DNA of 64,000 bases from an uncultured Alphaproteobacteria bacterium (GCA_902603095.1 CACKTS010000002.1:3652-67651), one strand, 5' to 3'. Numbered from the stretch's first letter, positions 2,932-10,606 are shown. A program made the numbers and translations. The notes: generated by a model from the letters alone, not told the origin.

Positions 2932-3716
2932 TAAGTACTATTTTTATTTGATTTCTTATTTTTATCTTTCATTTCATCTATTACAGATTGCGCATGAGTT
3001 GATAAAAATCTAAAATCTGATGAAATAGTAACTAATTTAAAACCTAAATCTATCATCTCTTTAGCGTATTTAGTAGTTCCATTATGAATACCAGCAATTT
3101 TACCGTATTCATTTGTTTTTTTTGCAATTAACTTTATTTTTGAAAAAACAGGATCTTCTTTAACATCAAATTTAGGGGAAAGACCATAAGAGGAACTCAT
3201 ATCAGCTGGTCCAATGTACACTCCTGTTAAATTAGGTACAGATAGTATATCATCTAAATTATTAACTGCTTGTTCAGTTTCTATCATTGCAAAGCTTAGA
3301 ATATTATTATTTGCATTGGAGAAATAATCTGATCCATGAATTAGTTGAGCACGCATTGGCCCAAAACTTCTTTGTCCGATGGGAGGGTAATAACAATAAG
3401 AAACAAAATTTTCACAGTCTTTTTTTGAATTGATCATTGGGGCTATAATTCCCATAACTCCTAAATCAAGCATTCTCATAATAATACCAGGTTCAGACCA
3501 AGGAACTCTAACCATTGCTGTTGATTGACTTGAAGATAAACTTTGTAACATAGAAATACTTGTAGAGTAGTCTGTTTGCCCATGTTGCATATCTATAGTA
3601 ATGGAATCCCAGCCCATCTTACCAAAAGCTTCAGCAGTAAAAGAATTAGGTATAGACAACCATGCATTAATAACTGGTTTCTTCTCTTCCCATAGTTTAA
3701 TCAGTTGATTATTCAC
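2928..3716 (-). CDS. HpcH/HpaI family aldolase (2-keto-3-deoxy-acid aldolase type)
   Basis: 262 aa. GTG start. Family-typical segments ...WDSITIDMQHG..., ...AMVRVPW..., ...MIETEQAVNNLDDIL...GVYIGPADMS... Confidence 0.8.
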   Translation of the reverse strand: MNNQLIKLWEEKKPVINAWLSIPNSFTAEAFGKMGWDSITIDMQHGQTDYSTSISMLQSLSSSQSTAMVRVPWSEPGIIMRMLDLGVMGIIAPMINSKKDCENFVSYCYYPPIGQRSFGPMRAQLIHGSDYFSNANNNILSFAMIETEQAVNNLDDILSVPNLTGVYIGPADMSSSYGLSPKFDVKEDPVFSKIKLIAKKTNEYGKIAGIHNGTTKYAKEMIDLGFKLVTISSDFRFLSTHAQSVIDEMKDKNKKSNKNSTY

Positions 3717-3771
3717 AGATTTATAAATTATACTAAAAGATAAAAAATTATATAGTAATTTTAATAAAAAA

Positions 3772-4752
3772 ATGAATTTAAGAAAATTTGGAAAGATTGG
3801 TTGGAACGTAAGCGAGATAGGTCTTGGATGTTGGGCTATTGGTTCAGAGTGGGGCGATGTTTCTAGTGAAGATGCAAAAGAAGTGCTTAAAACATCTTTA
3901 GATCATGGTGTTAATTTTTTTGATACTGCTGATGTATATGGTGATGGAAGAAGTGAAAAATTTGTAGGACAATTATTAAATTCTACTAGTGAAAGAATAT
4001 ATGTAGCAACAAAATCAGGAAGAAGATTAAATCCACACACCGCAGAAGGATATAACTTAAAAAATATAGAAGATTTTATTGATAGATCTCTTATAAATAT
4101 AGGTGTTGATTGTATTGATCTCTTACAATTACATTGTCCACCATCTGAGATATGTTCCAAAAAAGAAACATATGATATGATGGATGAAATTGTAAAAAAA
4201 GGCAAGATAGCAAATTATGGTGTTAGTGTGGAGAAAGTATCTGAGGCAATGGAAGCTATCAAATACCCAAATGTTAAGAGTATTCAAATCATTTTTAATA
4301 TATTCAGACAAAAACCTTTAGAAGTTTTTTTTGCAGAAGCAGCAAAAAATAATGTTGCAATTATAGCAAGAGTACCGCTTGCTAGTGGTTTACTTACAGG
4401 AAAAATGCATAAATACTCTTCTTTTCCTAAAAATGATCATCGCAATTATAATATTAACGGAGATGCTTTTGATATTGGTGAAACTTTCTCAGGTGTTAAT
4501 TATGAAAGAGGTCTCGAAGTTGTTGAGATATTGAAGGAAATAGTTCCTGATGATTTTACTTTATCAGACCTTGCTTTAAAATGGATATTAATGCACGAAG
4601 AAGTTAGTGTAGTTATACCTGGTGCTAAAAATTCTGAACAGGTGATAAAAAACACATTATCTTCATCATTACCAAATATTAATGATTTAATGGAGAAAAT
4701 TGAAGGGATATATAACTCTTATCTAAAAAATAATATTCATTCACGCTGGTAA
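3772..4752 (+). CDS. aldo/keto reductase family oxidoreductase
   Basis: 326 aa. GLGCWAIG..., FFDTADVYGDGRSE (catalytic Tyr context), ...LQLHCP..., C-terminal VVIPGAKN. Confidence 0.85.
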   Translation: MNLRKFGKIGWNVSEIGLGCWAIGSEWGDVSSEDAKEVLKTSLDHGVNFFDTADVYGDGRSEKFVGQLLNSTSERIYVATKSGRRLNPHTAEGYNLKNIEDFIDRSLINIGVDCIDLLQLHCPPSEICSKKETYDMMDEIVKKGKIANYGVSVEKVSEAMEAIKYPNVKSIQIIFNIFRQKPLEVFFAEAAKNNVAIIARVPLASGLLTGKMHKYSSFPKNDHRNYNINGDAFDIGETFSGVNYERGLEVVEILKEIVPDDFTLSDLALKWILMHEEVSVVIPGAKNSEQVIKNTLSSSLPNINDLMEKIEGIYNSYLKNNIHSRW

Positions 4753-6714: not shown

Positions 6715-7327
6715 AACTAAATCTTTATTAGATGGAATTGGTAATCAAAAAGAAACTGAGAGATATTATGATGATTGGGCAACAAATTATGATGAAACAC
6801 TCAAAAATTGGAACTATAACGCACCAAAAAAAGCAGTAGATATTTTATTTAATTTAAAAAAGAACATAATATTTAATTTAGACTTAGCTTGTGGTACAGG
6901 ATTGTTTGGTGAAGAGCTAATAAAAAAAAATAATAAGATAATTATTGATGGTTGTGACATTTCTTCACAGAGTCTTAAAATCACAAACAAAAAAAATTTA
7001 TATAGAAATTTATTTAAACAAAGTTTTGAAAAAAAAATTAAATTAAATCATAAATATGACTCAGTAAGTATGATCGGCTCAATGACTTATTGTAAAAAAC
7101 CTAATTTATTATTTCCAATTATTTTTAATTATCTAAAAAAAAATGGTATTTTTATTTTTACACACAGAGTTGATTTATGGATTAAACAAGATTTTGATTC
7201 ATTAATCCATAGTTATAATAAATTATTTAAATTTAATTATAAATCAAGACCATTGAATTATTTGCCAGAAAATATCGATTTTTCTAATAAAGTTAAAATT
7301 AGAATTGTGGGATTAAAAAAAATTTAA
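6707..7327 (+). CDS. class I SAM-dependent methyltransferase
   Basis: 206 aa. Motif I DLACGTGLFGEEL. The start overlaps the nit stop by 8 nt. Confidence 0.7.
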   Translation: MPKTKSLLDGIGNQKETERYYDDWATNYDETLKNWNYNAPKKAVDILFNLKKNIIFNLDLACGTGLFGEELIKKNNKIIIDGCDISSQSLKITNKKNLYRNLFKQSFEKKIKLNHKYDSVSMIGSMTYCKKPNLLFPIIFNYLKKNGIFIFTHRVDLWIKQDFDSLIHSYNKLFKFNYKSRPLNYLPENIDFSNKVKIRIVGLKKI

Positions 7328-7713
7328 TTTTTTTTATTAAATTTTTCCATTTTTTTTAATGTTTTATCGCTTACATGATGCTCAATTCCTTCCGCATCGG
7401 CTTCAGCAGTTTTTGAATCTAATCCAAGTTTTTTTAAAAATGTTAATACTATAATATGTTTTTTTTTAGATATACTAGCTAGTTCTTGCCCTTTTAAAGT
7501 TAGAAAAATTGATCGGTAAGGTTCTTTTTTAATATATCCCTGATATTGAAGTCTTCTTATAGTTTTATTTGCAGTAGCTTGGGCAATACCCAAGTGATTA
7601 GCAATGTCTACTATTCTTGCCTCACCTTTTGAGTTTAATAAATCAGCTATTATTTCTAAATAGTCTTCAGTATTCTCAGTTTTATGTGCATCTCTTACTT
7701 TTTTAAAGGACAT
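7324..7713 (-). CDS. mntR: DtxR/MntR-family metal-dependent transcriptional repressor (MntR-like)
   Basis: 129 aa. Winged HTH ARIVDIANHLGIAQATANKTIRRL followed by ...HIIVLTFLKKLGL...AEADAEGIEHHVS, typical of MntR. Divergent from a putative Mn transporter. Confidence 0.8.
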   Translation of the reverse strand: MSFKKVRDAHKTENTEDYLEIIADLLNSKGEARIVDIANHLGIAQATANKTIRRLQYQGYIKKEPYRSIFLTLKGQELASISKKKHIIVLTFLKKLGLDSKTAEADAEGIEHHVSDKTLKKMEKFNKKN

Positions 7714-7790: not shown

Positions 7791-8954
7791 ATGAATACAT
7801 TAATTTCAGCAATCAAAGATAAGCAAAAAATAATGTTGGCTAATGAGGGACGATTATTGAAAAAATCATTTTTTGGTTTGTTAATACTTTCTCTGGCTTT
7901 CCAAACTGGAAATTTTGGTAATATTGTTCGTCAATCAATGGTTGATGCGTATCTTGCTGTATCAGTTTTTGTAGGTTTTACATTAATTGTTTTTATAGGA
8001 TTAGATTCCTTAACAAAGTTTGATATAAATTTATTCTTAGAAAAAACCAAAAAATTGCATGTTCCCATTGCATCTTTTCTTGGTGCTATTCCTGGTTGTG
8101 GAGGTGCTATAATTGTAGTAACTCAATATATACAAGGCAGAATATCATTTGGTTCTTTAGTTGCTGTCTTAACTGCAACAATGGGAGATGCTGCTTTTTT
8201 AATTCTTGCTATGGAACCATCAACAGGAGTATTAATTTTTGTTTTAGGTATCTTTGTTGGAACAGTTTCCGGTTATATCGTTGATATTTTTCATGGTAAT
8301 AATTTTATGTTAGCTAATTCAAACATTGAATTAGAATTTCAAAAATTAAAAAAAACTTTTGTTTCTAAATTTAATGTTTTCTGGCTTATTTTATTTTTTC
8401 CCGGTTTTATCATTGGTATACTTCTTGCATTTCAAATAGATGTTAATAATTACCTTCAATTACCATCTAATATTAATATCGTTGTATTATTAGGATCTGC
8501 TGGAGCGATCTTATCTATTTTTATGTGGTCTCTTAATCCTTTAAGTGATTTTCAATGCTCTACAGATAAAAGTAGAGGATTTCTTTCAAGAGTAATTGAT
8601 ACTACGAACTTTGTTTCAACATGGGTTATTAGTGGTTTTCTAGTTTTTGAAATTTTTATGTATTTTACAAGTATTGATTTAAAGTTATTTTTTGATTTAT
8701 GGTTACCTTTCGTGCCTTTAGTAGCTATTGTATTTGGATTTTTACCAGGATGTGGACCTCAAATTGTCGTAGCTACTTTATATTTGAATGGTTACATTCC
8801 ATTATCAGCAGAGCTAGGTAATGCTATATCTAATGATGGTGATGCATTATTTCCTGCCATAGCTCTTGCTCCAAAAGCAGCAATCTTAGCAACAATTTAT
8901 AGTGCATTTCCAGCTATAATAGTAGCTTACAGTTATATGATTTTCTTTGAATAA
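7791..8954 (+). CDS. putative manganese transporter (MntX-like/ArsP_2-type polytopic membrane protein)
   Basis: 387 aa. Two homologous halves, each with a ...PGCG(G/P)..IVV... motif and a ...GDA(A/L)F... motif. Divergently paired with mntR. Confidence 0.6.
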   Translation: MNTLISAIKDKQKIMLANEGRLLKKSFFGLLILSLAFQTGNFGNIVRQSMVDAYLAVSVFVGFTLIVFIGLDSLTKFDINLFLEKTKKLHVPIASFLGAIPGCGGAIIVVTQYIQGRISFGSLVAVLTATMGDAAFLILAMEPSTGVLIFVLGIFVGTVSGYIVDIFHGNNFMLANSNIELEFQKLKKTFVSKFNVFWLILFFPGFIIGILLAFQIDVNNYLQLPSNINIVVLLGSAGAILSIFMWSLNPLSDFQCSTDKSRGFLSRVIDTTNFVSTWVISGFLVFEIFMYFTSIDLKLFFDLWLPFVPLVAIVFGFLPGCGPQIVVATLYLNGYIPLSAELGNAISNDGDALFPAIALAPKAAILATIYSAFPAIIVAYSYMIFFE

Positions 8955-9081
8955 TAAAAAATCAAATTTACCATCTAAAATTTGTAAAAGCTGTCAAAAA
9001 CCTTTTTCTTGGAGGAAGAAGTGGAAAAAAGAATGGGATAATATTGTTTACTGTTCAAAAAAATGTTCAAAGAATAAGTAG
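8947..9081 (+). CDS. DUF2256-type zinc-ribbon protein (44 aa, not in the ORF track)
   Basis: Hand translation (TTG start) ..NNKKSNLPSKICKSCQKPFSWRKKWKKEWDNIVYCSKKCSKNK. This matches the remembered DUF2256 pattern LPxKIC..C..PF.WRKKW...W..V.YCS..C. The frame is closed by TGA at 8938-8940, and TTG 8947 is the only start candidate. It overlaps the transporter stop by 8 nt. Confidence 0.6.
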   Translation: MNNKKSNLPSKICKSCQKPFSWRKKWKKEWDNIVYCSKKCSKNK

Positions 9082-9112: not shown

Positions 9113-10606
9113 GTGGCTTCAAAATCTTTATTTATAATACTTGGAAATCAATTATTTCCAATTAATGAAATTAATGACTATAAAGATTCTTATTTTTTTA
9201 TGGCTGAAGATTATGATCTTTGTACATATGAAAAACATCATAAACATAAGTTAATCCTATTTTTATCATCTATGAGAAAATATGCGTTTGAACTGCAACG
9301 TAAAAAATTTTCTTTGAAATATCATAAAATAAATAAAGATAATTTAAAATTAACCTACGAGGATAAGATTCAAAATTTCATTAAAAGTAAAAAAATTTCA
9401 GAAATTAAAATGTTTGAAATTGAAGATAAATTCTTTGAAAAAAAAATTATAAAATTTTGTAAAAGAAATCAACTTAAAATTAAATTTTTAGAAAGTCCCA
9501 TGTTTTTAAACTCAAGAGACAATTTTAAGAAATATCTATCAAAAGTTAAAAAACCATTTATGGCATCATATTATAGGCAACAAAGAATAGAAAAAAATAT
9601 TCTTATTGCAAATAATAACCCAATTGGTAACAAATGGAGTTTTGATGAAGAAAATAGAAAAAAACTACCAAATGATTTACCGATACCAAACCAACTTAAA
9701 TTTAAAGATGATGATATTGTTAAAGAAGTAAAAAAAATTGTAAATGAGCTTTTTTTTCATCATCCAGGAAATACAAATAATTATTGGTTGGGCAGTTCCA
9801 GAAAAGATGCTTTAAAAACTGTTGAGTTGTTCATAAAAGATAAGATAAATAATTTTGGAGATTATGAAGATTCAGTAAAAAAAAATTCACCTTTTTTATT
9901 TCATAGTACTCTTAGTCCTTATTTAAATTTAGGCTTAATAACACCAAAAGAAATTATTACTAAAATATTAAATGCAAACAAACTAAAAAATATACCTATT
10001 AATAGTTTAGAGGGTTTTGTAAGACAAGTAATTGGTTGGAGAGAATTTATGAGAGGTATTTATCAAAATTATACCGATAAACTTGAGAAGACAAATTATT
10101 TTAATCATAAGAGAAAACTTTCAGATGATTGGTACATAGGTACTACTGGAATTGATCCGATTGACGATGCTATAAATGATCTTAATAGATATGGATATGC
10201 TCATCATATTGTAAGACTAATGCATTTAAGTAATGTCATGACATTATCTCAGTTGCATCCTAAGGAGATCTATAAATGGTTTATGGAAATGTTTGTCGAT
10301 TCATCTGATTGGGTAATGTCACCAAATGTATATGGAATGGGTACATTTAGTGACGGTGGTATTTTTTCAACTAAACCTTATATTTGTGGATCAAACTATA
10401 TAATTAAAATGAGTAATTATAAAAAAGGAAATTGGTCAAATATTGTTGACGGACTTTATTGGAATTTTATTCATAATAATAAAGAGGTTTTATCAAAAAA
10501 TCCAAGAATGGGTATGGTTATGATGTCTTATAGGAAATTAAAGGGAGAAAGAAAAGATTATTTGCTAAAAATAGCAAATGAATTTATTGCTACAAAAACT
10601 AAATAA
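9113..10606 (+). CDS. cryptochrome/photolyase family protein of the PhrB/CryB (FeS-BCP, bacterial (6-4) photolyase) type, lacking the Fe-S cysteines
   Basis: 497 aa. GTG start. N-terminus LFIILGNQLF...HKHKLILFLSSMRKYA, core ...FVRQVIGWREFMRGIY...YGYAHHIVRLM...DWVMSPNVYGMGTFSDGG...KPYICGSNYIIKMSNY...LYWNFI...NPRM. Only 3 Cys in the whole protein. Confidence 0.8.
   Translation: MASKSLFIILGNQLFPINEINDYKDSYFFMAEDYDLCTYEKHHKHKLILFLSSMRKYAFELQRKKFSLKYHKINKDNLKLTYEDKIQNFIKSKKISEIKMFEIEDKFFEKKIIKFCKRNQLKIKFLESPMFLNSRDNFKKYLSKVKKPFMASYYRQQRIEKNILIANNNPIGNKWSFDEENRKKLPNDLPIPNQLKFKDDDIVKEVKKIVNELFFHHPGNTNNYWLGSSRKDALKTVELFIKDKINNFGDYEDSVKKNSPFLFHSTLSPYLNLGLITPKEIITKILNANKLKNIPINSLEGFVRQVIGWREFMRGIYQNYTDKLEKTNYFNHKRKLSDDWYIGTTGIDPIDDAINDLNRYGYAHHIVRLMHLSNVMTLSQLHPKEIYKWFMEMFVDSSDWVMSPNVYGMGTFSDGGIFSTKPYICGSNYIIKMSNYKKGNWSNIVDGLYWNFIHNNKEVLSKNPRMGMVMMSYRKLKGERKDYLLKIANEFIATKTK

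Follow-up and report, generated by a model that had tools for sequence, protein, structure and literature searches.

Prokaryotic (6-4) photolyases related to PhrB fall into forms with and without the four cysteines that ligate a [4Fe-4S] cluster. Roughly 30% of proteins belonging to the FeS-BCP clade lack these four cysteines and form one clade, and ocean iron limitation has been raised as a possible driver of cluster loss (Ma et al., bioRxiv 10.1101/366252). One classification sorts 110 prokaryotic (6-4) photolyases among seven subgroups, of which only subgroup M lacks the cysteines (its 20 sequences, PromaPL included, come from multiple lineages), and the authors proposed to keep the name FeS-BCP for the subgroups other than M (PMC9178010). 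With PromaPL of Prochlorococcus marinus CCMP1986, repair of a (6-4) substrate in vitro occurred only in the presence of Mg2+ and with very low activity (0.012 versus 405 min-1 for PhrB), measured in an impure preparation (10.1101/366252). The cyanobacterial Phr2 has been equated with PromaPL; disruption of the cluster-free phr2 gene of Synechococcus RS9916 lowered UV-B survival ~1000-fold, Phr2 was needed for survival of both UV-B and UV-C, and phr2 gave E. coli light-dependent rescue (PMC9426592). We found nothing relevant on this photolyase type in SAR11 or Pelagibacter in the literature searched.

The window analyzed here, a 64-kb stretch of DNA with a GC content of ~23-32% across its whole length (~27%), contains a single photolyase-family gene; no second one was found within it.

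9113..10606, + strand: photolyase homolog gene of subgroup M / PromaPL-Phr2 type (open reading frame, Pfam, PDB homologs, AlphaFold2 model and Foldseek)

This open reading frame has a GTG start and encodes a product of 497 amino acids. The choice of start codon is supported by a conserved N-terminal strand that begins at residue 5 (LFIILGNQLF, matching LVLILGDQLS of PhrB) and by the length of most close relatives, which is also 497 amino acids. A promoter and terminator scan of this AT-rich DNA gave 21 matches where 27 were expected.

The protein consists of a DPRP domain (PF04244, E=5e-59, residues 8-223) followed by a photolyase FAD-binding domain (FAD_binding_7, 5e-09), which is the domain order of prokaryotic (6-4) photolyases and the architecture of PromaPL (Q7V2P7 / WP_011132061) and Phr2. 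When we compared it with PDB chains using phmmer, the top match was PhrB of Agrobacterium fabrum (4dja, 3.7e-77, residues 5-479; also 5kcm and 5lfa), other matches were CryB of Rhodobacter sphaeroides (3zxs, 2.5e-74), the Caulobacter (6-4) photolyase 9hnk, SePhrB of Synechococcus elongatus (8ijy) and the Vibrio cholerae (6-4) photolyase 7ykn, and the next photolyase class was far weaker (2.8e-4). Homology to PhrB (4DJA), CryB (3ZXS), Caulobacter 9HNK, SePhrB 8IJY and Vibrio cholerae 7YKN/8A1H is full-length, with E values of ~1e-77 to 1e-58, so the Pfam and phmmer results exceed chance homology to PhrB and CryB by far. The protein passed no NCBIfam model and had weak, sub-threshold matches to the DASH and CPD photolyase models. 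An earlier reading made from the sequence alone (the sequence-only reading) had called this a PhrB/CryB-type protein and had quoted a series of motifs, every one of which is present in the translation; the profile and structure-database searches agree with that assignment. We conclude that the 497-amino acid protein belongs to the family of prokaryotic (6-4) photolyases (Pro6-4; the FeS-BCP/CryPro clade in the broad sense).

An AlphaFold2 model of the protein, built from a 41-sequence alignment, had a mean pLDDT of 96.2 and a pTM of 0.94. When this model was compared with known structures using Foldseek, it matched PhrB (4dja) with a TM-score of 0.94 and an rmsd of 2.2 Å, and 9hnk, 3zxs, 8ijy and 8a1h with TM-scores of 0.92-0.93 (family structures overall: TM 0.89-0.94, rmsd 2.2-2.8 Å), and the TM-score was ~0.6 against class II, class III and eukaryotic (6-4) enzymes. 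The predicted fold is therefore confidently PhrB-like, and the similarity to PhrB and CryB runs from end to end and is closer than that to other photolyase classes. Every solved structure of the family in the PDB copy that we searched has the four cysteines, and none represents the cluster-free type; for cluster-free members, neither a solved structure nor clean kinetics is available. The high-confidence model suggests a compact, cysteine-poor protein, which could help to reveal the contribution of the Fe-S cluster in PhrB.

To compare the protein with its relatives, which number in the thousands, we used two samples. The first was drawn from the 150 best sequences of a 50%-identity library, 135 of which were full-length representatives; of these 135, 10 had the four cysteines and ~125 had none, with proline at the position of PhrB C350 as the rule among the latter. 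The second added 78 homologs from one-genome-per-species contigs for a total of 215 relatives, a sample biased towards the protein studied here, in which 203 are cysteine-less and 12 have four cysteines (PhrB included). The cysteine-less signature is thus found in 203 of 215 sampled relatives. Marine metagenomes, as well as metagenome-assembled genomes (MAGs) named Pelagibacteraceae or Alphaproteobacteria, contain intact 497-amino acid orthologs (58-99% identity) in abundance, which indicates purifying selection. The abundant full-length orthologs and the confident model lead us to reject a pseudogene or decaying gene.

We mapped the [4Fe-4S] ligands of PhrB (C350, C438, C441 and C454) onto the protein with a MAFFT alignment, and none of the four is present.

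PhrB C350: Pro349
PhrB C438: deleted
PhrB C441: deleted
PhrB A453: Ser442
PhrB C454: Asn443
10157..10159, + strand: Pro349, at the position of the PhrB Fe-S ligand Cys350 (HMMER and MAFFT alignments)
10418..10441, + strand: shortened loop Y436-KKGNWS-N443, in place of the PhrB loop with C438, C441 and C454 (10-residue deletion)

In the HMMER alignment, IDPI of the protein lies opposite MNCM of PhrB (C350), and MSNY----------KKGNWSNIVDGLYWNF lies opposite the ligand-bearing segment of PhrB, with a 10-residue gap. Alignments to 7ykn, 8ijy and 9hnk, all of which contain the C...CxxC...C pattern, give an identical 10-residue gap and the same absence of cysteines. The protein therefore differs from the FeS-BCP/CryPro structures in having no [4Fe-4S] ligands and a loop that is 10 residues shorter, and it resembles PromaPL and Phr2, which likewise lack the four cysteines, have proline at the C350 position and have a shortened loop. 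Proline occupies this position in 185 of the 203 cysteine-less relatives and in all 115 close relatives. The segment equivalent to PhrB residues 434-460 is 17 amino acids long in the protein and in 161/203 cysteine-less relatives, compared with 27 amino acids in 12/12 four-cysteine sequences. In the model, helices 427-433 and 440-455 are linked by the shortened loop as a tight turn (pLDDT ~96-98), and this KKGNW turn holds a near-invariant tryptophan. The earlier claims that the four ligand cysteines are absent and that the loop is shorter by several residues are thus upheld by the alignments, as is its count of three cysteines in 497 amino acids, which is exact (C37, C116 and C425). From the missing ligands, we infer that the protein lacks a [4Fe-4S] cluster. 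An alternative cluster site built from the protein's own cysteines is ruled out, as C37, C116 and C425 are scattered and C116 is not conserved (24 of the 115 close relatives have S, G, I, L or A instead).

We also observed that 98 of the 203 cluster-free clade members contain a single cysteine in a G-x-W-C motif, one position from the C454 position. This cysteine is thus present in about half of the clade, the Prochlorococcus sequences among them, whereas the residue at the same column in the protein studied here is Ser442 (window positions 10436-10438); most close relatives have serine or asparagine there. The single cysteine of G-x-W-C could be what is left of the fourth ligand, C454.

The residues associated with repair in PhrB are retained.

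9644..9646, + strand: Asp178, equivalent to PhrB Asp179, Mg2+-linked (alignment; role from 10.1101/366252)
9869..9871, + strand: Asp253, equivalent to PhrB Asp254, the second Mg2+-linked aspartate (alignment; role from 10.1101/366252)
10202..10207, + strand: His364-His365, equivalent to the PhrB active-site dyad His365-His366 (HMMER and MAFFT alignments)
10379..10381, + strand: Tyr423, equivalent to PhrB Tyr424 (alignment; impaired repair of Y424F according to the title of PDB 5lfa)

In PhrB, Asp179 and Asp254 have been linked to the Mg2+ stimulation of repair (Ma et al., 10.1101/366252), and a Y424F mutant is impaired in repair (title of PDB 5lfa). H364, H365, Y423, D178 and D253, together with W389 (PhrB W390), are each kept in 95-99% of the 203 cluster-free relatives (~97-99% for the catalytic and Mg2+-linked residues), with histidine found at the two dyad positions in 197 and 201 of them; the retention of the His-His catalytic motif noted in the sequence-only reading is thus confirmed by its alignment with the PhrB dyad. 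The protein shares the His-His dyad, the Mg2+-linked aspartate pair and the equivalents of Tyr424 and Trp390 with the FeS-BCP/CryPro structures, and PromaPL and Phr2 also conserve the His-His, Asp-Asp and Tyr residues. At two electron-transfer positions the protein departs from PhrB (W342 to Tyr341 and Y391 to Phe390), and both replacements are the norm in the cluster-free clade. The best-conserved residues of the lumazine pocket are L8, G9, D10, E33, K47 and M55 of AfPhrB (PMC9178010). Five of these six antenna-pocket residues, those equivalent to L8, G9, E33, K47 and M55 of the FeS-BCP/CryPro proteins, are kept (L10, G11, E32, K46 and M54), and the sixth, D10, is replaced by Asn12. According to the authors of that classification, members of subgroup M probably differ in the antenna that they use (PMC9178010).

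We consider it likely, from the conserved residues, the model and the analogy to its relatives, that the protein is a functional cluster-free prokaryotic (6-4) photolyase of subgroup M, of the PromaPL/Phr2 type. Its substrate and cofactor content are predicted to be those of the family, and the earlier view that it is possibly still repair-competent has indirect support from the (6-4) repair by PromaPL (10.1101/366252) and the genetics of Synechococcus Phr2 (PMC9426592). In the mechanism we propose, the C-terminal domain would bind FAD, blue or near-UV light would excite FADH-, and the excited FADH- would donate an electron to a flipped-out (6-4) pyrimidine-pyrimidone lesion, with the His364-His365 dyad and Tyr423 helping the rearrangement. 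Asp178 and Asp253 would act in Mg2+-dependent lesion binding and charge stabilization, as described for PhrB, and the N-terminal pocket would probably hold an antenna chromophore. Pro349 and the short, tryptophan-containing KKGNW turn are predicted to fill the former cluster site, with the flanking helices joined directly.

For the cluster-free forms of Phr2, it has been suggested that they "likely act as CPD photolyase" (PMC9426592), and the UV-B defect of the phr2 mutant (~1000-fold) exceeds what one might expect from (6-4) lesions, which are a minor class (PMC9426592). By this reasoning, the protein would be a CPD or bifunctional CPD/(6-4) photolyase, with cluster loss accompanying a change of substrate. 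However, that suggestion was made from the missing cysteines alone, PromaPL, a member of the same clade, repaired a (6-4) substrate (10.1101/366252), and the (6-4)-typical His-His dyad and the equivalents of D179, D254 and Y424 are conserved, so we regard a CPD or bifunctional activity as unlikely. We view it as more improbable still that the protein is mainly a light sensor or regulator, cryptochrome-like as reported for Rhodobacter CryB. Its homology to CryB is strong, but the repair-site residues are strictly conserved, clade members (PromaPL and Phr2) have repair phenotypes, and no regulator-type partner lies beside the gene, as the nearby DtxR-type repressor is paired divergently with a metal exporter.

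In a neighbor-joining tree rooted on PhrB, the 203 cysteine-less tips formed a single clade and all 12 four-cysteine sequences fell outside it, a result from a simple tree and a sample biased towards the protein studied here that agrees with the published statement of one clade (10.1101/366252). The nearest neighbors in the tree were Pelagibacterales sequences, with 55-57% identity. The same cysteine-less clade takes in the two Prochlorococcus loci (L049 and L050), whose sequences have 40-42% identity to the protein, and PromaPL and Phr2 share this clade with it. The protein thus lacks the four cysteines, groups with the cysteine-less sequences that include Prochlorococcus, as subgroup M does, and has the shared derived characters of this group: the proline at the C350 position, the loop shorter by ~10 residues and the G-x-W turn. 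It differs from PromaPL and Phr2 in sequence (~40-42% identity) and in host, which appears, from the GC content of ~27% and from relatives named Pelagibacteraceae, to be a SAR11-like alphaproteobacterium instead of a cyanobacterium. The sequence-only reading had hedged its novelty by pointing to possible cluster-free relatives in Prochlorococcus, and this caution was well placed, as such relatives are published, both as ~30% of the family (10.1101/366252) and as subgroup M (PMC9178010). We conclude that the protein is a typical SAR11-lineage member of an already published and experimentally sampled cluster-free clade. By itself it changes little, since cluster-free PhrB-type photolyases have already been described. 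SAR11-type orthologs are, at the same time, extremely abundant in surface-ocean metagenomes, from which we propose that an enzyme of this type is probably a major marine route of (6-4) photorepair.

Hosts of the clade include Pelagibacterales, SAR86, Puniceispirillales, Actinomarina, Prochlorococcus, Cyanobium, Bacteroidota (Dyadobacter, Chitinophaga, Sediminibacterium and Flavobacteriaceae), Planctomycetota, Verrucomicrobiota, Bdellovibrionota and Leptospira. Because members from freshwater and soil, and from Leptospira, also fall in the clade, the loss must be much older than SAR11, and we conclude from the sequence comparisons that cluster loss is an old, clade-wide event that the SAR11-like genome inherited and not a local adaptation. 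It had been proposed that the loss is consistent with iron economy in an oligotrophic ocean bacterium. This is weak as a SAR11-specific explanation, because the signature occurs in 203 of the 215 relatives, non-marine taxa among them. Since the loss is clade-wide, extends to Leptospira, Dyadobacter, Chitinophaga, Sediminibacterium, Planctomycetota and Verrucomicrobiota, and occurs in soil, freshwater and host-associated taxa, iron economy as an adaptation specific to SAR11 is ruled out. Iron economy may nonetheless be a reason for the success of the clade in the ocean.

Three genes were identified upstream of the photolyase gene.

7324-7713, - strand: DtxR/MntR-type metal-dependent repressor (Fe_dep_repress N- and C-terminal domains)
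7791-8954, + strand: ArsP_2 "putative 10TM heavy-metal exporter" (E=5.6e-121)
8947..9081, + strand: 44-amino acid DUF2256 gene with a CxxC...CxxxC motif and a TTG start (Pfam PF10013, E=1.7e-18)

The repressor and exporter genes form a divergent pair directly upstream of the DUF2256 and photolyase genes, and murA, hisG and hisD lie downstream of the latter. The DUF2256 gene overlaps the ArsP_2 stop codon and stops 31 nt short of the photolyase start, and is a probable co-transcribed companion of the photolyase gene; as the exporter stop overlaps the DUF2256 start, the ArsP_2, DUF2256 and photolyase genes may form one transcript. DUF2256 belongs to the Pfam TRASH clan of cysteine-coordinated metal-binding domains (PMC4047054). 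It also lies directly upstream of the photolyase gene at the Prochlorococcus loci L049 and L050, as it does in the window.

The position of a four-cysteine DUF2256 gene next to a photolyase gene that has lost four cysteines raises the alternative that the protein still carries a metal cluster, either through non-canonical ligands or through the cysteines of DUF2256 acting in trans. Of 80 genomes, 21 have a DUF2256 motif within 4 kb of a cluster-free photolyase gene, and in 20 of these the two share a strand. We therefore looked at the linkage from the other side, in a sample of 80 DUF2256 loci from metagenomes. A photolyase-family gene was present in the available flank of 40 of these 80 loci. 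Where each side extended for 2 kb or more (40 loci), such a gene lay within 400 bp in 25 loci, on the same strand in 23 of the 25. PhrB-type neighbors of DUF2256 in the 80 loci more often had four cysteines (18) than none (6), and DUF2256 also adjoins PF00875-type photolyase genes. In one Flavobacteriaceae MAG (L081, 3702-7646), for example, genes for a short-chain dehydrogenase (SDR), a PF00875 photolyase, DUF2256, a second PF00875 photolyase and a 410-amino acid DPRP (PhrB-like) protein are tightly spaced on one strand. DUF2256 is thus no substitute for the cluster, and a supply of the lost cysteines in trans is rejected on the basis of the 18 four-cysteine and 6 cysteine-less neighbors. Given also that the three cysteines of the protein are scattered, with C116 not conserved, and that the site-forming loop is deleted and confidently modeled as a tight turn, we consider retention of a metal cluster by any route very improbable, and we favor the cluster-free reading of the protein.

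From these linkage data, we conclude that DUF2256 is a general companion of photolyase genes, strongly linked to several classes of them and independent of Fe-S loss. We found no mention of a connection between DUF2256 and photolyases in the literature searched, a PDB profile search with DUF2256 gave nothing significant, and a homology search with the 44-amino acid peptide returned only 3 matches. We tentatively suggest, as a possibility with less than even chances, that DUF2256 is a dedicated and unrecognized photolyase partner, such as a zinc-ribbon DNA- or lesion-binding protein or an assembly factor. If this were true, the SAR11 DUF2256 and cluster-free photolyase would constitute a minimal two-gene photorepair module. 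The linkage gives work on this functionally uncharacterized protein family a testable starting point.

In Prochlorococcus loci and in those of other Pelagibacterales, we observed a short-chain dehydrogenase-like open reading frame and a small CxxC open reading frame on the flanks of the cluster-free photolyase gene (L001 5466-5846; L049 3214-3624; L001/L008 about 3253-3982, - strand). The small CxxC product resembles the DCC/DUF393 thiol-disulfide oxidoreductase family. Together, the dehydrogenase-like and CxxC reading frames would form a recurring photolyase neighborhood that is unlike the one in this window.
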